A stretch of DNA of 59,313 bases, the filler included, from Squatina squatina (taxonomy: Eukaryota), in assembly GCA_031763465.1 (NCBI GenBank). It is 3 parts of 3 records of this genome, joined end to end, with 100 filler letters (N's around TTAATTAATTAA, not from the genome) between each part and the next. Parts side by side here need not be neighbours in the genome. Positions count along the whole stretch, not along the records: positions 24,095 to 43,494 come from JARFOE010000192.1; 2 more parts are not named here. One strand, 5' to 3'. The position numbers and the translations under genes were made by a program. Within the stretch, counting starts at the first letter, position 1; every line of letters starts with the position of its first letter. Shown here piece after piece: positions 25,167-55,567 of this stretch. Under the pieces are notes generated by a model, which did no database searches, was not told where the DNA came from, and saw only the letters and a program-made list of their open reading frames with translations.

Positions 25167-25790
25167 GGTGGCGAGAATGGCGGAGGATGATCTGTTGAAT
25201 GTGGAAGCTGGTGGGGTGAAAGGTGAGGACAAGGGAAACCCTATCGTGGTTCTGGGAGGGAGGAGAAGGGGTGAGAGCAGAAGTACGGGAAATAAAACGG
25301 ACACAGTCAAGGGCCATGTCGACCACGGTGGAGGGGAATCCTCAGTTGAGGAAAAAGAAAGACATGTTTGAAGCACTGGTGTGGAAAGTGGCATCATCAG
25401 AACAGCTGTGACAGAGACGGAGGAACTGGGAGAATGGAATGGAGTCTTTACAGGAAGCAGGGTGGGAGGAAATGTAGTCCAGGTAGCTGTGGGAGTCAGT
25501 GGGCTTGTAGTGGATGATTATCAGTAGCCTATCCCCAGAAATGGAGACAGAGAAGTCGAGGAAAAGTCGGAGATGGACCATGTGAAGGTGAGGGAAGGGT
25601 GGAAATTGGAGGCAAAGTGAATGAAATTATCTGGTTCAGGGCGAGAGCAGGGAATGATACCGATAGTCATCAATGTACTGGAAAAAGAGGTGAGGGAGGG
25701 GACCAGAGTAGGACTGGAACAAAGATCATTCCTCTTATCCCACAAAAAGGCAGGTATAGCTAGGACTCATGTGGGTTTCCATAGCAACAC
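25167..25790 (-). mobile_element. Degenerate Penelope-like retroelement fragment (RT C-terminal region)
   Basis: Minus-strand frames give YKPTDSHSYLDYISSHPASCKDSIPFSQFLRL..CSDDATF and ISRTSALTPSPPSQNHDRVSLVLTFHP, typical PLE motifs, broken by frameshifts. Confidence 0.85.
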
Positions 25791-28520: not shown

Positions 28521-28834
28521 CGTCTTTCAGATGAGACGTTAAACTGAGGCCCCGTCTACTCCCTCAGGCGAACGTAAAAGATTCCATGACACTATTTTGA
28601 AGAAGAGGAGAGTTATCCCTGGTGTCCTGACAAATATTTATCCCTCAATCAACATCTAAAACAGATTATCTGGTCATCATCACATTGCTGTTTGTGGGTG
28701 CTTGCTGTGCGCAAATTGGCTGCCGGGTTTCCTACATTACAACAGTGACGACACTCCAAAAGTACTTCATTGGCTGTAAAGCACGTTGGGATGTCCTGTG
28801 GTCATGAAAAGTGTGATAAAATGCAAGTCTTTTT
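28521..28834 (+). mobile_element. SacSINE1/AmnSINE1-type DeuSINE (Deu domain plus 3' tail)
   Basis: gtctttcagatgagacgttaaactgaggccccgtct...atcacattgctgtttgtggg..cttgctgtgcgcaaattggctgcc...aagtacttcattggctgtaaagc...aaatgcaagtc matches the recalled Deu-domain consensus. Several other copies occur in the window. Confidence 0.88.
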
Positions 28835-29941: not shown

Positions 29942-30150
29942 TGCTCTGTGGCGGAGTGTTCAATGCTACCAACACGCCTCAGACCATTACATCTCCTGGT
30001 TATCCGCATGATTATCCGCCCCTCACCACGTGTCACTGGACCATTGAAGCTCCTACACAGGAACAAATCAGAGTGACAGTACAGGAATTCAATTTACCAG
30101 CCAACCCAAACTGTACTCTGGATTACCTGGAGATTAAAGACTGGCCAGCG
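29942..30150 (+). CDS. CUBN: Cubilin internal exon, N-terminal part of the third-from-last CUB domain (about CUB25)
   Basis: Poly-T tract + ag (29940-29941), donor GCG|gtcaga; 209 nt, phase 1/0. Translates LCGGVFNATNTPQTITSPGYPHDYPPLTTCHWTIEAPTQEQIRVTVQEFNLPANPNCTLDYLEIKDWPA; matches recalled cubilin CGGTYNATWTPQNISSP. Confidence 0.95.
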
Positions 30151-30884: not shown

Positions 30885-31345
30885 AAGAAAACTTGCATTT
30901 ATATAATACTATTCATGCCCTCAGGATCTCTGAAAGTGCTTAAAAGTCAACGAAATACCCTCTTGAAATGTAGTTGCTGTTGTTATATAGGGAAAAATGG
31001 CATCCAATTTGCATACAACAAGGTCCCACAAATAGCAAGTGACATAAGTGACTAGTAAACCTGTTCTTGTGGTGTTGGTTGAGGGATGAATGTTGACCAG
31101 GACATCAGGAGAATTCCTTACTCTTCTCAACTAGTGCCAAGGGATCTTTTCAATCCACCTGACGAGGTAGCTGGGCTTCACTTTAGCATCTCATCTGAAA
31201 GACAGCACTTCTGATAATCAGCATTCTCTTCAGTGATGCACTGAAGTGACAGTCCAGGGATATGACCAAATCCTGAAGTGAACCTTTGAATCCACAATCA
31301 TCTCATTTATCAGCAAGGGTGCTACCACGGAGCCAAGGCTGACAC
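30885..31345 (-). mobile_element. Diverged near-full-length DeuSINE copy
   Basis: Reverse complement of the 28521 copy: acttgcatttatata...caaggtcccacaaatagcaa...gttgagggatgaatgttgaccaggaca...catctcatctgaaagac, plus a tRNA-like head. Confidence 0.8.
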
Positions 31346-32271
31346 TACTGCACTNNNNNNNNNNNNNNNNNNNNNNNNNNNNNNNNNNNNNNNNNNNNNN
31401 NNNNNNNNNNNNNNNNNNNNNNNNNNNNNNNNNNNNNNNNNNNNNNNNNNNNNNNNNNNNNNNNNNNNNNNNNNNNNNNNNNNNNNNNNNNNNNNNNNNN
31501 NNNNNNNNNNNNNNNNNNNNNNNNNNNNNNNNNNNNNNNNNNNNNNNNNNNNNNNNNNNNNNNNNNNNNNNNNNNNNNNNNNNNNNNNNNNNNNNNNNNN
31601 NNNNNNNNNNNNNNNNNNNNNNNNNNNNNNNNNNNNNNNNNNNNNNNNNNNNNNNNNNNNNNNNNNNNNNNNNNNNNNNNNNNNNNNNNNNNNNNNNNNN
31701 NNNNNNNNNNNNNNNNNNNNNNNNNNNNNNNNNNNNNNNNNNNNNNNNNNNNNNNNNNNNNNNNNNNNNNNNNNNNNNNNNNNNNNNNNNNNNNNNNNNN
31801 NNNNNNNNNNNNNNNNNNACCACGGAGCCAAGGCTGACACTACTGCACTGACACTGCTGAGCCAGGCTGGCACTGCGGTGTACTCAGCTTCTGTACCATC
31901 CAGTTCCCTCGACTGCTTACTTTTAATTTACTCGTATATTCTCAGTTAGAGCCAGGAGCGTCTGATACAACATCCGAGAATAATTTGGCTTTATACTTTA
32001 CACCAGGTATAGTAAAATTCTTTCTGGCCTTCATGGGAAAAAAAAGGAGAGATTTTGATATTTTCAATAGAATCAGTACAGAGATTTCACAAGACTTTAG
32101 TGATACCATGAAATTATGTCTGTGAGGGGATGACTGGATTGCTGCAGTCTTGTCAAGACAAATATTTTAAATGTCATCAGGAACTGGGGCTCAGCTGGAG
32201 CAAAAACAATGTTTCATGGATTTTAACCTTTTACATTTATGTTTAAAATTATAAATTTTTTCTCATCTCAG

Positions 32272-33154: not shown

Positions 33155-33262
33155 GAAAGTAACATTGCTCCTTTCACTTCTGCATCTTACCGTGTGTTTG
33201 TGAAATTCCATGCTGAATATTCAGTTATGCCCTCTGGATTCAGAATTACATGGACCAGTTAG
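33155..33262 (+). CDS. CUBN: Cubilin last coding exon (end of final CUB domain plus stop)
   Basis: Acceptor ctcttttcttatag; 108 nt, phase 0. Translates ESNIAPFTSASYRVFVKFHAEYSVMPSGFRITWTS*, colinear with the recalled human C-terminus [35 protein letters not shown]. Too short to appear in the ORF track. Confidence 0.95.
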   Translation, partial: ESNIAPFTSASYRVFVKFHAEYSVMPSGFRITWTS

Positions 33263-33272
33263 TTATGTGAGG

Positions 33273-33278
33273 AATAAA
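33273..33278 (+). terminator. Candidate CUBN polyadenylation signal AATAAA (others at 33645 and 33852)
   Basis: Canonical hexamer 10 nt after the TAG, followed by T/GT-rich sequence. Which signal is used cannot be told from DNA. Confidence 0.4.
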
Positions 33279-35142
33279 TTAATACTTAGAATATAGAGTA
33301 GAATGCTAATGTTTTACTTCACTTAAATTGTTAGTTTATAAATTATGATATAGTACAGTGTGACTTTTGTAGTGACCAAAGATGGGAGCACCTGAAATTG
33401 CCAAATTAGTCCGTAAATCTTACTTTGCAACAGTTGTAAAAGTGTAAATAATTGTTAATGTGTAGAAAAGCCAGGACATTTTTAATAGCCTCAGCTGTTT
33501 CTAGAATATTATGCTAAGGAACAGAAGGAGAAAGATTTGTCATTGTAAAGATGAGGTTAGTATGAGAGAGAATAGACTGGAGGAAACAGAGAATTACAGA
33601 AAGTTAGATACAGAGGTCAGAAGTACATACATAGGACTAATGGGAATAAAGGAAAGTGAATGTTGTAAAGTTAACTGGTAAATAATTTGTGAAAGGAGGA
33701 GAGCGCATGTCACAGATAGTTTGGTTACAATGGAATTAAGTATTTGTGGTGATAATTTGGTATTAATGGGAGAAAAAAAATTGTTTATTGCTGGCATGAT
33801 AAAGAAGACCTGCTTTATTCTCTGGAATCCATGAACAGAATGTAAAATTGTAATAAATTTTGCCTCCATGCTGGTGTAGAGTGTGTTANNNNNNNNNNNN
33901 NNNNNNNNNNNNNNNNNNNNNNNNNNNNNNNNNNNNNNNNNNNNNNNNNNNNNNNNNNNNNNNNNNNNNNNNNNNNNNNNNNNNNNNNGCGTGGGAACAT
34001 CGTTCCCACCCAGGGAGATCGCAATTTCAGGGCCACTGTGTTTTCTCCTCATTTCCCATTTTATAAAAAGGTGCACAGCGCATCTCAGAGGAGAAAAGGG
34101 GAAATTTTGACATGAAACACTAACACTGACTAAAATAGGCCCTACAACATATTGCACTCAAAGCAACATTTGCAGGAATCATGCAAAAGGGGTTCCCCAC
34201 CCTATTTCTCAAACTATGGTCACACATTCCATACCAGCAGGACCCAGACTGCTGGCCAGAAAATGAACCCTATGGTTTTCTGTGGCCACTTAGTGCAATT
34301 GGATTCTCTGAAACTTCCCATTTCAGAAACAGGCATTGCTGTGATTTTGTTAGCTGATAATGAATTATTAAGAATGACATACATTACTTCCAATTTTTTT
34401 GAACAGAGGAATGTACATCCCTTTGTGCTTGTTACAGAGATGAACGCAATCCCAGTCTACGTCATGTACCGAGAGTGAATTATTACATTATTATCACACT
34501 TAGGAGTTGTTCATTAATAGGAAATGAGCAGATTCTCCAGGAATTCATAAAAAACAAAATATTACATAGAGGCACAGTTATAAATTAGTATAAATATTAA
34601 ACATTATCATAAATATTTTATATCCTGTTATTTATATTGCATTCATTGGGTTCCTTACTTGTGTGTCAGTGGACATGTTTATTTTTCCTTTCCCACAGGC
34701 TACAGAGCTGGAATCTGGATCTTTCCTTAAAGGAGAAGCAGAGTTCCTGGAATGTACTAAGACTGTGCACAGGCAAAGAAAACCTCGAGCAAAACATACC
34801 CATACGCACATTTACAATATATAAAAATAAGGACACATTGTATGACTTTAAAATGGGCACTTCATTACACCTGCATGCCCTGGTCCAATTATCCTATGCC
34901 CTTTAATTCACTTCTATGGGGACTATGCTTGATCTTGAGCCCTGGGGGTAGATTCTGACTTTGTGCAATAGTGTAAAATGGGTGATAGCGAGTTGGCAGC
35001 CCGTTTTACATCTCACCCGATTGTTATAGCAATTGACTTCATNNNNNNNNNNNNNNNNNNNNNNNNNNNNNNNNNNNNNNNNNNNNNNNNNNNNNNNNNN
35101 NNNNNNNNNNNNNNNNNNNNNNNNNNNNNNNNNNNNNNNNNN

Positions 35143-35430
35143 ATCTTTCCATCAGGCACTTTACAGCTTTCTGGACTCAACGTCAATTTCAACAATTTCA
35201 GAGCATAACCTCTGCCTCTATCTTTTTCCCATAACAGCTGATGATTTTGCTATATTCATCTACATCTCTCCTCGACGCATCTTTTGTTTCTTTACGTGTC
35301 CCATTACCGTCTCCTTTTGCTTTGTACAATCATACCTTTTGTCAGTTAATCCCTTCTGCCTCCCACCTTATCGTAGACATTCCCTTTTGTTCTTCTTTCC
35401 CACCTTTCCCTGCCCCTGCTTAAAATCTGA
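35143..35430 (+). mobile_element. Penelope-like element, 3' end of ORF and downstream region
   Basis: IFPSGTLQLSGLNVNFNNFRA* resembles the GIY-YIG C-terminal motif I..LGTLQP.GLN, followed by a pyrimidine-rich tail. Confidence 0.75.
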
Positions 35431-35607
35431 TACATTAAAAATCTTTATTCGTAGGTTCATTAATGACATTGGGATCACCTCCGACCCCACCCCCTCAAAA
35501 AGACCTCACAATGTAACATTGAACACGCTGTTATATTGTCNNNNNNNNNNCCACTGAACCAATGGTTACAAACTACGTCTACGGACTATCAGTGGTGCTG
35601 CAAATCC

Positions 35608-35910
35608 CTTTGATTGGCTGGCATTGGGCTGCAGTGATTGGATGGTGAGGGTGATTGACAGCTCGACGTACCCGTCCCGCCTTTGATTGGCTGGCATGGG
35701 CTGCAGTGATTGGATAGTGAGGGTGATTGACAGCTCGGCGTGCCCGTCCCGCCTTTGATTGGCTGGCATGGGCTGCAGTGATTGGATAGTGAGTGTGATT
35801 GACAGCTCGGTTTGTCCTTCCCTCCTTTGATTGGCTGGCATGGGCTGCGGTGATTGGATGGTGAGGGTGATTGACAGCTCGGCGTGCCTTTCCCTGCGGT
35901 GATTGGCTGC
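35608..35910. repeat. 72-bp tandem repeat, 4 full copies plus a partial
   Basis: Units start at 35608, 35681, 35753 and 35825. Consensus CTTTGATTGGCTGGCATGGGCTGCAGTGATTGGATRGTGAGGGTGATTGACAGCTCGGCGTGCCCGTCCCGC. Confidence 0.97.
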
Positions 35911-36005
35911 TCTTGCTGTTCCACAACTGCTGGAGGAAATGTCCTTTTAAAGATAAGGCGTTAGTAAATACAGGAATTCTTCTGCTCTGACAGAGTCCTT
36001 CCGGT
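35608..36005 (+). promoter_or_regulatory. Putative RSU1 promoter: clustered inverted CCAAT boxes, four TGATTGACAG decamers, GC-box-like CCCGCC and an ETS-type CTTCCGG
   Basis: TGATTGACAG at 35652, 35724, 35796 and 35868; nine TGATTGG; CTTCCGG at 35998-36004. Lies directly upstream of a splice donor and the RSU1 ATG exon. Confidence 0.75.
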
Positions 36006-36047
36006 TGGGTGTGATCTGAGCTTTGGAGGATCCTGCTGGAGTTCCAG
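35980..36047 (+). other. RSU1: Putative non-coding first exon of RSU1 (5' end approximate)
   Basis: Donor CCAG|gtaaaa at 36047/36048 just after the ETS motif. It gives a 288-nt intron to an acceptor 3 nt before the ATG, so an upstream non-coding exon is required. Confidence 0.6.
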
Positions 36048-36338
36048 GTAAAAAGCACAGAAGTTGCCGTTAACGGGTGTTTTATCTTGTCTTTAATTCC
36101 CTTTCTCAGGACGGTTTAAATTGACTGCAGAGCAAGGTTAGAACAAAGTGGCTTGTTTTTCAACTGTGGGGTTAAAACAAATAGATCGCCAGAGGCCCTG
36201 GTCGCAACAAGCATCCAAGTTGTTTATAGTTAAACTTCAAACTTTTCAGCACTTTGGTTCCTGGTTTACCTTTTGTCAATGCAGCAAACGTGCTGTGATT
36301 TCGAGTAATGGGGTGTTTACTTTCTTTCGCTGTAGAAA

Positions 36339-36447
36339 ATGTCGAAATCGCTGAAGAAAATAGTGGAAGAATGCAAGGAAAAGAACCAGGCAGACCTGGA
36401 TTTGTGTGACAGGGGAATCTCCAGTATGCTGGATATCTCGGGACTCT
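36339..36447 (+). CDS. RSU1: Ras suppressor protein 1, first coding exon (exon starts at 36336)
   Basis: Acceptor tttctttcgctgtag|AAA ATG. Translates MSKSLKKIVEECKEKNQADLDLCDRGISSMLDISGL + 1 nt, then GT at 36448 before a gap. Near-identical to recalled human MSKSLKKLVEESREKNQPEVDMSDRGISNMLDVNGL. RSU1 follows CUBN in vertebrates. Confidence 0.96.
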
Positions 36448-37429
36448 GTNNNNNNNNNNNNNNNNNNNNNNNNNNNNNNNNNNNNNNNNNNNNNNNNNNN
36501 NNNNNNNNNNNNNNNNNNNNNNNNNNNNNNNNNNNNNNNNNNNNNNNNNCTTTCCCTTTCCCTTTCCCTTCTGGGGTGGGGGGGGGTTGGCCTTTCCCCT
36601 CCCGGGGGTTGGGGTGGTGGGGGGGGTGCGGGTGTGCTTTCCCCTCCCGGTGGGCCTTTCCTTTCACATGGTGCCAAGTACATCTTGTAGTTTTTATACA
36701 GTTACAGAAATTGTTCACTTACTAAAATTTAAGTTTACTTTTTTATTTTTTATCTTTTGAGTGTCAATTACCTAATCTAAAACGGGGTTTATTAGTTATC
36801 TGAGTTTTTGAGGCACTACTCTGTACTATTTATCTCCCGCTGTTGCTCACCAAAAATGGTCTATGGAGTGAGTTAGTAGTATTGAACTTTTACTGCGCTA
36901 TTAATAGTATTTGACAGTTTAGCCCAAGGGTATCATTGTGAAATCTGTGATAGATCTGTCAGTACAGAATTGAAAATGAAAACCTTTTTAAACTGGCTAC
37001 TCTGTAATTAACCCTTGGAGTCCTAGAAATTCTAAAGTATATTGTATCCCTTGGTTTGCTATTTAAAAAGAAAAAAATCATCTCAAACCTCTTGAGTGCA
37101 AAAAGGGAATTACTGGAGTAATAATGTACATATGCATGCCAATACAAATTAATGGTTTTAAAAGACTATTTTTGTTCATCGCTTTCCCTCCTACCACTGT
37201 CAAACCATTTTGGAGCTAGAATCCTATCGGACCTCACCCTGATTTTGTTTCGATCTTGTGTTCTGCCAAATGAGGCTGATTTTTCCCCGTTTGCTCGGAG
37301 TATGTAGAATGAGATACTTCAGTGGCAGCTTAAGTAGAGTAATTTGAAACAAGATTTTGTCAACAACATAGGGCAATAGGGTCTGGGAATAAAGAGGGGA
37401 GGTAGATATTAATGCTTCCTCCATAGCTG

Positions 37430-37709
37430 TTTGGTTCAGTAGTCATAATCTTGCCTCTGCATCAGAAAATTGTGGGTTCAAGCCCAAGTGCAGGATTTGA
37501 CCTTTTAAGTGCTGTATTAGAGGTGTTATCTTTCAGATGAGATGTTAAACTGAGGTCCATCAGCCTGTGCAAGTGGACGCACTATTCAAAAGACCAGGGA
37601 AATGCTCCCAGTGCCTGGCCAACATTTATTCCTCAACCAACACCACCAAAAACAAATGAACTAGCTGCTGCATTTGGCTGCAAAACAGTGACAACATTTC
37701 AAAAGTAAT
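37430..37709 (+). mobile_element. DeuSINE copy with tRNA-derived head
   Basis: B-box-like gggttcaagccc, then tctttcagatgagatgttaaactgagg...cctggccaacatttattcctcaaccaac; internally deleted. Confidence 0.8.
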
Positions 37710-38956
37710 ACATGCCAGCCACCTCCAATGCCTCTCCTCTANNNNNNNNNNNNNNNNNNNNNNNNNNNNNNNNNNNNNNNNNNNNNNNNNNNNNNNNNNN
37801 NNNNNNNNNNNNNNNNNNNNNNNNNNNNNNNNNNNNNNNNNNNNNNNNNNNNNNNNNNNNNNNNNNNNNNNNNNNNNNNNNNNNNNNNNNNNNNNNNNNN
37901 NNNNNNNNNNNNNNNNNNNNNNNNNNNNNNNNNNNNNNNNNNNNNNNNNNNNNNNNNNNNNNNNNNNNNNNNNNNNNNNNNNNNNNNNNNNNNNNNNNNN
38001 NNNNCTGTCAGATGGACTCTGCCCTCTTCTCCTTTAGTCTGCTCTGATCTCCTTGAAGGAGGCCTGTTCCTACAGTCTTGTATGATTTCCGTTACTCAGC
38101 ACTGTTTTCCTATTGTATCATCTGATTCCCTTCACTTTGGTGCCAACTCCTTCAGTCTGGCATTATTTCCTCAAATCTACATTGATCTCCTTGAGTCTAA
38201 AGTCATTTACTGCACTGTGAAGTCAGGGGCTGGACTGTTGCATGCGCTCCTCGCCTCTGCAGACAGAAGATCGCCTCTGTACTTTGCGCCTTAAGTGCCA
38301 ATATAGCGCCTCCAGAACACGCCTCTCCAAAAAACTTTTTAAAAAAAAACGAATTTCGCAAAGTTATAGAGCCTCCGCAGTTAGGCGTGATTAAGGCGCT
38401 AAAAATTTTTGCAAGCCTTTACAGAGACGCCACCAAATTTCACCTCCTAATCTGCTAACTCTTCTATTGGCTGCTGTAAAGATGGTTACGGCTATGGAAG
38501 GAGTGTTCATGTCGCAGCCTGTCAGCTTGTGAATCCTTCCACAACTTCACACTATTCTCCAAGGGAAGAGTGTGAAGATATGACAACAATAACACATGGC
38601 AGCTACTTTTGGCTTAACTTGAACACATTGGCTACTATTTATATCGGTAGTGATGACCACTAAAATGGTTGCAAAGTAGAGCCTTGTCAGATCTTTTAAT
38701 TAAACAGCTGGCACTCCTTCCCTATTCCATGTCTTTAGATGTGTGAATATCCTGTTGAATCAGTGCTGCTTGTTTGGATTGGTTTTGTTTTATTTAACTC
38801 ATTCAGTTCTGGGAACCCAAGATCATAGTACAGTGTAAAAGTTAATTCTTCTATTGCACAGTATCACCTGACTTCATCTGAACACATTTAAAACTTAGTG
38901 CTCCTTCTCCATATTGGCTGGTTTGATGGAAAATGTAATTTTATCTTGGAAGCAAT

Positions 38957-39871: not shown

Positions 39872-41798
39872 ATGAAAATCAGAATATTTTAACTTACATC
39901 ATGAGAAATGTGCTAAAGCTGTGAGAGAGAAAAGAAAACGATACTTGGTATACTTGTGAAATCTGGAATGAGGTGGGTTAAAAGACAATCCTATTAGTGT
40001 TGTTAATCGGTGCTCTAATCCAACCCATGCAGACTCTTGTGACTTATATTTTCAAAGTGTTGATAATTTAATCACGCCCCCAAAACTTGTGATAAACGGT
40101 AGCTCTGTCAGTGAGCTATCACCATGAACTATCGCTACGCCAATGAAAATTCAGCATAGTGATAAATGTTTACTATTAATTAATTAATAATACAAGGTAG
40201 CCAATAAGTGAGAGGAAAATTGCACTGACTTTAGCAAGTTGGTTATTACCAAGGCTGGGCAATTCCTCAGAGAAGCTACTGCTCTGCCAAGGTTACTTCA
40301 AAGCAATTCGGGCGAAGCAACGCTGGCAGAGTGAGAGCAGCCGAGTGGACTTTCCCAGCCCAAGTTTTTAATGCTACTATAGTCTACAGATTGATGTTGG
40401 TGATTACCTGTCTAGCATTTTAATGGCAGCCCTAACCCTTTTTAAAATAAATGNNNNNNNNNNCCGTTAAACTAGAAGGCAGGAGGAGTGCATTAAGCGT
40501 TTCTCTGCTAACATCGCTCAAGGAACGTTTGAGCTCATTTTTAATCACTGCTTAGCAGAAGAATGTAGCCAGTTTTGCAAACCGTTTTGCACAATATTCC
40601 TTGCCGCAGCAGCCTCCACTATAGCAGGATGAATGGGATAGGCAAACAAGGAGAAAGAAAATGCTCAGGAGACGATAGTCAAGTGAAAGGCTGCATAGAC
40701 TGAGGTAGGATTACTTCACACCATCTGAGTGGTCATTTCTAAAAACCTTTAGACCAACCTAGGGGGTCAGTATTCGAGACATTAAAATGCCAGCTCCATA
40801 AAATGGAGGTATAAAACAAGCTGGTGTTTAGGTGCGTCTGAGACAGCTACAGGGCCTATCCAGCTGCTTGGCAGAGATTAGAGTGGCATTGATCAGTGAC
40901 CTGTGTATGTCCAGATAAATTCAGTGAATGATATAGGTTACTGGAGAAGAAGCAGCTTCTAACATTTCTCTCAAAGCGCAGAGAACAGTTGGCAACACGG
41001 ATGAGCAACATCGAGTAGTATGGGCTGCTCACACTCTAATGGCATAACAACAGAGTCTGTATTCAAATAAGTAATTCATTGGCTGTGAAGCACTTTGGAA
41101 TGCTCGGAGGATGTGAAAGGTGCTATATAAATGCAAGTGGTTTCTTAGTGAAGTGAGCCCCTCTATGCTGCTGAACATTGTCCTTATAAGGTAATATTAA
41201 CACAATGGGGGACATTTTCAACTACCAGCCTTTTGCTTCTCATCTGGAAGATGGGTGACCGGCTGTTGAAAATCAGGTGGGGACCTTGCACAACCAATTG
41301 CCGGCCTGAATCAACGTTCAGGCAGGTCTTTAAGTAGATACCTAGCACTCCTGGCCAAAACAAATGGGAGGCTGTTTAAATATTCAAATCGGGGTCCTAC
41401 ACCCGCTGTAGGACCCCGATTGCAACTTTCAAGGAGAAAGCACGTGTGGCACATGCCAGTCCCGCTTTCTCCGTCATCTGGAGGCCTAACTGACAGACCT
41501 TAAAGGGACTGCTGGAAGCTTTTCCCAAAGAGTAAGGTTTTTTTTTAAAAGAGGGTTTGTGGGACCAGGAAGAATTGGAATAGGAATGCTCCTCAGGTCT
41601 CCACAAAAACTTTCTGGCTTGCTGCTGGGCTGTTCTCACTCCTCCACCACCACCTCCCCCCCACACCCCCAGTATCCATTCCCCACAACAGGTCTTACCT
41701 ACCTGCCAGCAATAGCTGGGCGAATTTACTCCTGAAGATACTGGTGAGCTTCAGCGGAGTGAGCACCCTTTTTTGCATTTGCAGCTGAACTAAACAAT

Positions 41799-52797: not shown

Positions 52798-52869
52798 AAT
52801 GGCGGTGCAGGCTCGAAGGGCCTAATGGCCTACTCCTGCACCTATTTTCTATGTTTCTATGTTTCTATC
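52798..52869 (+). mobile_element. Young CR1/HER1-type 3' tail (opposite-strand copy at 32873-32904)
   Basis: ggcggtgcaggctcgaagggcctaatggcctactcctgcacctatt(ttctatgt)n. The 32873-32904 sequence is its exact reverse complement over about 32 nt. Confidence 0.85.
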
Positions 52870-53028
52870 AGTCACCTACCAGTTACACTACCAATCAACC
52901 ATCAGTCAACTACCAGTTACACTACCAGTCATCTACCAGTCAACCACCAGTCACCTACCAGTCACCAACTACTAGTTACACTACCAGTCAACCATCATTC
53001 ACCTACCAGTCACACTACCAGTTGCACA
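52869..53028. repeat. Degenerate 11-12 bp minisatellite (ACCAGTCAMCT / ACCAGTTACACT)
   Basis: About 13 imperfect units directly abutting a CR1 tail. Confidence 0.85.
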
Positions 53029-53600: not shown

Positions 53601-55398
53601 CACTGTGAATGGTGCTTAACTAGTTACTCTTTTGGAGTAAAACAGGTGCAAACAATAAACAAATCACATCACATACAATAATTTAAACAAAACCCCAGTG
53701 CTCAAATTAAAATCCCATCGTCCCCAGTGAGGATGCACTCCAGTCCCCCCGGCGCCCACCGGTCGCGGAAGGCCGCGAGAGCGCCGGCGGACACCGCGTG
53801 CTCCCTCTCCAGGGAGTGTGTGGAAAGTTAATTGATGATGAAAATGGGTCACCTGCAATTGATTGCATTCTCAGCAGGAGCGCCCCTCCAGCGCCCCATA
53901 GGGGCTCTCAGCACCTGCTGGAGCACCACGCCTGCAACCTTAGAAAATTTCAGCCAATTCCACAGCTCCATGATGATATGGGTGGCGGACGCTAGTGGGG
54001 CACCAAGGTCACGAATAGCGTCGGGAGCGCCGCGTCACTGAATTTAGCACCCCACCTCCCCCCACCCCGGTGGTATTGTTAACTTTGGCTTTCTCCATCA
54101 TGTAATTGTGATCTGACGTCGTCTCTTTGTGAGCTACATGACCAAGATGGTCATCAGGTTATAGCTGCATGACTGGAGTTATGAACTATGTAGCAGCCTT
54201 ACAAGCCTTTTATATTAAGTGCAAAAACACTGTTAATCTGCAGTGATAGATTCTGTAGTCTGTGCTTACACATTACTGAACGTATTTTGTATCATGAGGC
54301 TTGTATTTTGCAGCCCCTGTAGAGCTCCAGCTCAACCTGGAAATTCCTTGCGAGTTCTGCAGACTTTTGGTCAGTGAATGTGCATGGTTCCAGTATAGAA
54401 GGTCATCACCAATTCGCATTGGTAAATGATTTAGTCGTTTTATAATAGAAAGCTGAGGTCTGTGACAGCTGGCTGCATTTCCTGTAACCCCAGGGACTAC
54501 AAATCACTATGACCTTGTAATTCCACCTTAATGTCAATACATCAGCGATGAAGAGTGACAGTGACTGCGGCATTTGTTGGGGCAGAGCTCAAAGCTCTCT
54601 CAATAACTCCCAATTTCAACTTCAGGCCAAATGTTTGGGGATTTGGGAGAATCATAAATGAGGGTACTGAGATTAAATTTCTGCAAAAGAAGCAACTCTT
54701 AAACTGTAAAAAATAAAAGGGGAAATGGTTTAGGCCATCAGCTGCAAACTGCATCTAAGTAATTGTGGATCACAGAAGCTAGTATTTGTATCACCGGGGA
54801 ATGATTTAAGTGATGTTCCCAGATAATTTCCCAATAGCTGCAGACTGCTGCTAGCAGCTATTGTTCTTGCTGAAGAGGCATCAAAGTTATAAACTATAAG
54901 GCACATTACTGAATGTAGGAAAGCCAAAGACAACATCGAGATCTCATGTGACTGGATTAGCCCCCAAGTAATTTGAAGGAACATTTTCTCATCTGACTTT
55001 CTTCAGTTACAGCTTGCCAGTAAAGGTTGGAAGCCGAGTTGATCATTTAGGTCATTTTGATTAACGGTCCCTTTGCTCTGTTTATTGGTAGATTTCAGTG
55101 GTGATACATTGTGGAAACCATTTTAAAAGAATACAGAAAACACATCATGGTGCCGAGTAGTTTGAAAATGTTTCTCTGCCCAGTGAAATTTACCATACCA
55201 CAGCAGACATTGTCATTTATAACAGCAGAAAATCCAGGCAGTGACTGCCAATAAATGCCAATAAATGTTGATCATAGCACTACTACATGCCAGCCTTANN
55301 NNNNNNNNNNNNNNNNNNNNNNNNNNNNNNNNNNNNNNNNNNNNNNNNNNNNNNNNNNNNNNNNNNNNNNNNNNNNNNNNNNNNNNNNNNNNNNNNNN

Positions 55399-55567
55399 GA
55401 AGTACAAGTAAATCACTGTCTCACCTGGAAGGAGCGTCTGGAGCCCTGGGCAGTGGGAAGAGAGGAGGTAAAAGGGCAGGTGTTGCATCTCCTACGCTTG
55501 CACGGGAAGGTGCTGTGGGGAGGGGAGGGGCTGTTGGGGGTGATGGAGGTGTGGACCAGGGTGTCCA
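55399..55567 (-). mobile_element. Penelope-like fragment (Cys-rich linker before the GIY-YIG domain)
   Basis: Minus strand reads HSTFPCKRRRCNTCPFTSSLPTAQGSRRSFQVRQ*FTCTS. Confidence 0.75.

Follow-up and report, generated by a model that had tools for sequence, protein, structure and literature searches.

The putative proximal promoter of RSU1 in the shark Squatina squatina contains a tandem array of four diverged copies of a 72-base unit, each carrying two CCAAT boxes and one perfect PBX/PREP decamer. Judged from the sequence, the copies may stem from local duplication of the RSU1 proximal promoter and may act as an additive NF-Y plus PBX/PREP platform rather than as an Sp2-bridged complex, a reading to which we give an about even chance. 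The window, meaning the whole stretch of DNA analyzed, comprises 59,313 nucleotides including filler.

The array was delimited by Tandem Repeats Finder to 35607–35909 (period 72, 4.2 copies, 91% matches, score 478) and is the top-scoring of five rows that the program returned for the window. It has a G+C content of 57% and no assigned strand. An earlier note on this DNA had described four units of 72–73 bp, which proves to be real: unit 1 consists of 73 bp, and units 2 to 4 of 72 bp each. Every pair of units differs at 4–10 of 73 columns, meaning that the units are 86–95% alike and have diverged by 5–14%. The decamer TGATTGACAG occurs four times in exact form in the window, at 35652, 35724, 35796, and 35868, all of them within the array. 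TGATTGG is found nine times in the array, compared with 14 times in the whole window—two copies per unit and a ninth at 35900, which is the start of a partial fifth unit and closes the array.

Going from left to right in unit 1, CCAAT box A (AGCCAATCA on the minus strand) lies at 35611–35619 and is repeated at 35684, 35756, 35828, and, at the array end, 35900. We infer from its motif that box A is bound by NF-Y. CCAAT box B (ATCCAATCA on the minus strand) follows at 35635–35643, with repeats at 35707, 35779, and 35851; its 5′ flank is the weaker one by the consensus. The decamer of unit 1 (35652–35661, plus strand) follows box B at a distance of ten bases and does not share the strand of CCAAT, and the minus-strand arrangement CTGTCAATCA-N10-CCAAT that had been proposed was found in all four units. 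The CCAAT spacing from A to B amounts to 24 bp in unit 1 and 23 bp in units 2 to 4, and that from B to the next A to 49 bp. A GC-box–like CCCGCC spans the junction of units 1 and 2 (35676–35681, plus strand) and occurs again at 35748–35753. It had been assigned to the ends of units 1 and 2, and it is present after these two only; junction 3/4 reads CCCTCC, and the motif is missing at the array end. Upstream of the array, a single CCAAT box at 35559–35563 (plus strand) is oriented opposite to the array boxes, and the place expected for its partner decamer is taken up by a 10-N run. In their contexts, the terminal CCAAT box (35898–35912) and the decamer (35866–35880) differ at 2 of 15 bases. The NF-Y site and the PBX/PREP site thus appear to be near mutational neighbors here, and so small a difference raises the possibility that an older short repeat gave rise to all three motifs of the unit.

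The gene downstream was identified by the exon at 36336–36447 (plus strand; ATG at 36339, donor GT at 36448). It encodes the first 36 RSU1 residues with an E value of 5e-11 against human RSU1 chains, which supports the gene identity that had been named. A pattern search of the window found no further RSU1 exons; hence, the identity of RSU1 rests on one 36-codon exon. Since the acceptor of this exon lies only 3 bases before the ATG, a non-coding exon must exist upstream. The core promoter and this exon 1 would occupy 35910–36047 (plus strand), with a TATA-like TTTAAA at 35946 and an ETS-like CTTCCGG at 35998–36004. The latter, which had been claimed to lie downstream of the array, is indeed present and is the sole copy in the window. 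A donor candidate CAG/GTAAAA at 36048 agrees with the exon-1 donor placed about 140 bp past the array, but a second candidate at 36137, which had gone unmentioned, scores equally (5 of 7 consensus positions each). Intron 1 would extend from 36048 to 36335 (plus strand), with the donor GT at 36048 or alternatively 36137 and the acceptor AG ending at 36335. RSU1 may also have a small alternative 5′ exon at 36111–36136 (plus strand), delimited by a pyrimidine tract with an AG at about 36110 and by the donor candidate at 36137. From the end of the array, it is 138 bp to the first donor candidate and about 430 bp to the ATG of RSU1, in support of the promoter-proximal position that had been suggested.

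Upstream of the array, cubilin exons are found on the same strand (best PDB match cubilin, E 3e-33; Pfam CUB). They include a CUB-domain exon of CUBN at 29942–30150 (plus strand; database match) and, likely, the last CUBN exon at 33155–33262 (plus strand; by sequence pattern and position), with its stop codon at 33260–33262 and AATAAA at 33273. The array follows this stop codon and poly(A) signal at a distance of 2.3 kb and precedes the RSU1 coding exon, which makes it intergenic. This succession of CUBN and RSU1 agrees with the human order. The CpG observed/expected ratio is 0.56 over 35551–36447 compared with 0.34 for the window; this signal is not special, as a score at least as high is reached by about 20 of the 515 overlapping stretches of 900 bp. 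Rfam returned 2 weak matches over 33200–38000, both far below threshold and neither within the array. Farther downstream, in the presumed long RSU1 intron, an 11-bp-period tandem repeat (consensus CTACCAGTCACA, 13.7 copies) is located at 52865–53022.

The motif content of the unit is not due to chance. When one unit was shuffled 100,000 times with its dinucleotides preserved, a decamer together with two CCAAT boxes was obtained once, and none of the 694 N-free 72-bp tiles outside the array within the window contains the decamer; in both tests, the motifs were picked after the sequence had been seen. The conservation of the motifs is less clear-cut. They had been described as invariant in their cores, and none of the 12 variable columns does fall into the 28 motif columns, but the significance is only marginal (P about 0.03). 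The naive P value for this motif sparing is 0.0016, the rotation null gives 2/73, and the cluster null gives 0.026; with 20 strict core columns, the rotation null rises to 4/73 and the cluster null to 0.08 (P 0.055–0.08). Eight of the 12 variable columns are clustered in the 18-column tail of the unit, and the non-motif stretches at columns 1–17 and 45–59 are likewise invariant. Selection on the array motifs is hence suggestive only. The array could instead be a neutral minisatellite, in which a single copy is functional and the others are passengers, tolerated in a G+C-rich promoter that is prone to duplication. The marginal motif conservation and the invariance of the non-motif stretches are in line with such neutrality, whereas the absence of variable columns from the motifs at a rotation null of 2/73 is not.

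Comparison with promoter minisatellites bears on the same question. As in these systems, the shark units are arranged head to tail, each with factor motifs. The human ABO CBF/NF-Y minisatellite consists of four 43-bp units (PMC7187371). In both arrays, a CCAAT-containing unit is present four times in tandem on the upstream side of a gene, and NF-Y sites are thereby multiplied. However, the ABO minisatellite is situated about 3.8 kb upstream, is polymorphic with one or four units, and has been shown to bind NF-Y (PMC7187371), whereas the shark array would be promoter-proximal and combines two CCAAT boxes with a decamer in each of its diverged units. The in vivo effect of the ABO minisatellite is described as controversial (PMC7187371), which favors neutrality of the extra copies. 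The opposite is suggested by the 33-bp VNTR in the human TRIB3 promoter, where additional copies raise expression stepwise (PMC7425993). In TRIB3 as at the shark locus, a composite factor site close to the gene has been duplicated locally in tandem; the TRIB3 units are identical, exist in 1–5 copies, and scale expression (PMC7425993), compared with shark units that are 86–95% alike. Weighing both sides, we consider a neutral minisatellite rather unlikely. Literature searches on the RSU1 promoter, shark or CUBN, and on shark promoter minisatellites found no description of the locus. The RSU1 array would most likely be a new locus of a known promoter-repeat type, akin to ABO or TRIB3.

A stronger reading would be that the sites form cooperative NF-Y/PBX-PREP composites. 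The published DECA-CCAAT composite, which PBX/PREP and NF-Y occupy jointly in a complex stabilized by Sp2, reads GAnnGAC-11bp-CCAAT on one strand, with the PREP half-site facing CCAAT and a core-to-CCAAT distance of 11 bp, of which 10–12 bp are tolerated; in the structural model, orientation matters because a flip of the decamer reorients the heterodimer (bioRxiv 10.64898/2026.02.16.706105). The shark units resemble this composite in that, read along the strand that carries CCAAT, the decamer comes before the box, its 7-base core is 11 bp away, and several CCAAT boxes are nearby. The GAnnGAC core is present in all four exact copies of TGATTGACAG, and the distance of 11 bp is kept in four of four units. 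In contrast to the composite, GAnnGAC and CCAAT share a strand in none of the units. The decamer is inverted in all four, so that the PBX half-site rather than the PREP half-site faces NF-Y. With 10–12 bp allowed, the published pattern has one loose match in the window, at 34372, and none in the four units; the inverted pattern occurs in all four units and nowhere else in the window.

As a human control, approximately the 410 top-scoring of 1,559 rows in a table of PBX2 sites from NF-YB/PBX2 co-bound K562 peaks were tallied by hand (PMC7046753 Table 8). Among these best 410 or so rows, the published layout was counted 49 times and the inverted layout of the array five times at a flat expectation of 2.9, the classes assuming a TALE site 5′ of CCAAT as the table gives no CCAAT strand. 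The TALE site does stand 5′ of CCAAT according to PMC7793273. In these human peaks, the inverted layout of the array does not rise above background. One base further out, the inverted layout accounts for 11 rows of the same subset versus 2.9 expected, and a further CCAAT box with a normally oriented site may account for some of the rows classed as inverted. Many rows on human chr19 and chr7 of this Table 8 show a decamer-like site 30–31 or 59–60 bases from CCAAT, with a cluster on chr19. Those clustered rows are probably promoters of paralogous zinc-finger genes. The K562 list contains no PBX2/NF-YB co-bound summit near the assumed position of the human RSU1 start (the search control worked), which is weak evidence that human RSU1 is without the module.

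With the decamer inverted in four of four units and a human count of five rows against 49, the cooperative composite in its published form is not supported. Helical phasing of the sites, which had been claimed, is uninformative: 72 bp correspond to 6.86 turns at 10.5 bp, i.e. 51° off per unit, and 35% of all periods between 30 and 150 bp come as close to helical phase, for which reason phasing was rejected as evidence. The full reading—phased cooperative NF-Y/PBX-PREP(/Sp2) composites whose variable copy number tunes RSU1 dosage—nevertheless has points in its favor. The decamer core is placed exactly at the published 11-bp distance, though inverted; the 11 rows one base further out may indicate that an inverted class exists; and in gel shifts with the published layout, NF-Y aided PBX/PREP binding even without Sp2. 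Against it stand the orientation and the human tally, the possible origin of the 11 rows as published-type sites of a second CCAAT box, the uninformative phasing, and the 4–10 columns at which units differ. We regard dosage tuning by such composites as quite improbable. By its motifs, the unit would be classed as a multi-CCAAT promoter with TALE sites, outside the composite as defined.

Multi-CCAAT promoters bound by NF-Y, Sp2, and PBX3 are known (PMC4889920 and PMC4368557), and the mouse Sp2 promoter contains five CCAAT boxes and three decamers. Enriched human CCAAT spacing classes are 24–28, 35–37, and 43 bp (PMC4889920); the 24 bp of unit 1 lies at the edge of the first class, the 23 bp of units 2 to 4 falls just under it, and 49 bp is outside all of them. 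The spacing range of 30–50 bp given for Sp2 promoters takes in the 49 bp of the array (PMC4368557). Co-occupancy of TALE factors and NF-Y is also known in zebrafish (PMC6023610, bioRxiv 10.1101/720102, and the review PMC11802806).

The unit was found nowhere else in the 53,244 called bases of the window, which supports the earlier claim that one motif-rich module was multiplied locally. Units join 4–5 bases ahead of box A. An identical 10-mer (TGATTGGCTG) at the array's right edge keeps the same register, and TCCCT is shared by the two flanks at that point. Given this register, the ancestor may have been a single module composed of box A, box B, decamer, and a further box A′. Slippage or unequal crossover between A and A′, which are similar and lie 72 bp from each other, would have duplicated this module, and later duplications may have used other breakpoints. 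The GC box would have arisen at the unit junction; since CCCGCC is only present across junctions 1/2 and 2/3, it appears to be a product of the tandem and not of the ancestral module. A four-gamete pattern at columns 38 and 68/73 was considered as a sign of gene conversion and rejected, as shifted-breakpoint duplications fit too. Substitution rates in sharks are slow. The divergence of 5–14% suggests that the array is old, and unit differences of 4–10 bases do not suggest a fast-changing repeat.

A different origin would be the remnant of a transposon promoter, either an LTR U3 or a LINE 5′ monomer array, taken over as RSU1 promoter. In human LTR12, the U3 region contains 5–17 tandem 41-bp repeats with NF-Y-bound CCAAT boxes (PMC11853044), and the shark array resembles the U3 of LTR12/ERV9 in that tandem units with repeated CCAAT boxes precede a start site. 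LTR12/ERV9 are dispersed retroviral LTRs, whereas the shark array shows no LTR hallmark and has no second copy in the window. About 170 bp upstream of the array, the stretch 35143–35436 (plus strand) contains the end of a reading frame (IFPSGTLQLSGLNVNFNNFRA and stop) and a pyrimidine-rich tail. This retroelement-like stretch, whose proximity would fit a transposon origin, is similar in appearance to the 3′ terminus of Penelope-like retroelements. Its 21-residue piece at 35143–35205 has no Pfam match and did not match three related retroelement proteins, which end earlier. A transposon origin is further opposed by the absence of long flanking direct or inverted repeats in 34000–38000 and of AATAAA/ATTAAA between 35437 and 36335, and by the array occupying the place expected of the host promoter; it is unlikely on balance. 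Other repeats of the window are broken retroelement fragments at 25168–25770 and 55398–55565 (both minus strand; 55–77% identity to proteins P0002–P0004) and a SINE-like dispersed repeat in three diverged copies (73–75%) at 28522–28834, 30885–31203, and 41043–41138. Exact unit patterns had 0 matches in metagenome contigs, which is uninformative for a vertebrate. The 11 viral-contig loci matching a 16-base spaced pattern were taken as chance.

The array might also have been expanded by the assembler. The window contains 42 N runs, one of them the 10-N run 57 bases upstream of the array, and a duplicated overlap surrounds the N run near 31.4–31.8 kb. There, at 31325–31850, a run of 464 N is bordered on each side by about 30 identical bases, which points to an overlap left unmerged in the assembly. 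However, each pair of units differs at 4–10 columns, and both flanks of the array are unique. In general, a short-read assembly is more likely to collapse extra copies than to add them. An artefact is hence very improbable.

Local duplication into an additive platform remains the preferred reading, and its working would be as follows. NF-Y would bind the A boxes best, hold the TATA-poor promoter open, and set the start site some 70–90 bp past the last box, and PBX/PREP would bind the perfect decamers through an affinity of its own. The number of units is probably an old, fixed trait and would have at most a modest effect on the RSU1 level.

Taken this way, the array would add one more case to the promoter minisatellites known to multiply activator sites, and our literature searches turned up no description of its locus. 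It offers a natural test case for the role of orientation in a decamer-CCAAT element and for the relation of unit number to RSU1 output; herein, the inverted decamer is the single feature of the array worth a bench test. The finding would gain weight if arrays of this kind turned out to be frequent at the promoters of shark housekeeping genes. Cartilaginous fishes may repeatedly amplify NF-Y/TALE modules at housekeeping promoters, and the inverted pair may represent a second binding grammar, with cooperation of PBX/PREP and NF-Y that needs no Sp2 bridge—a wider proposal that we hold to be a long shot.
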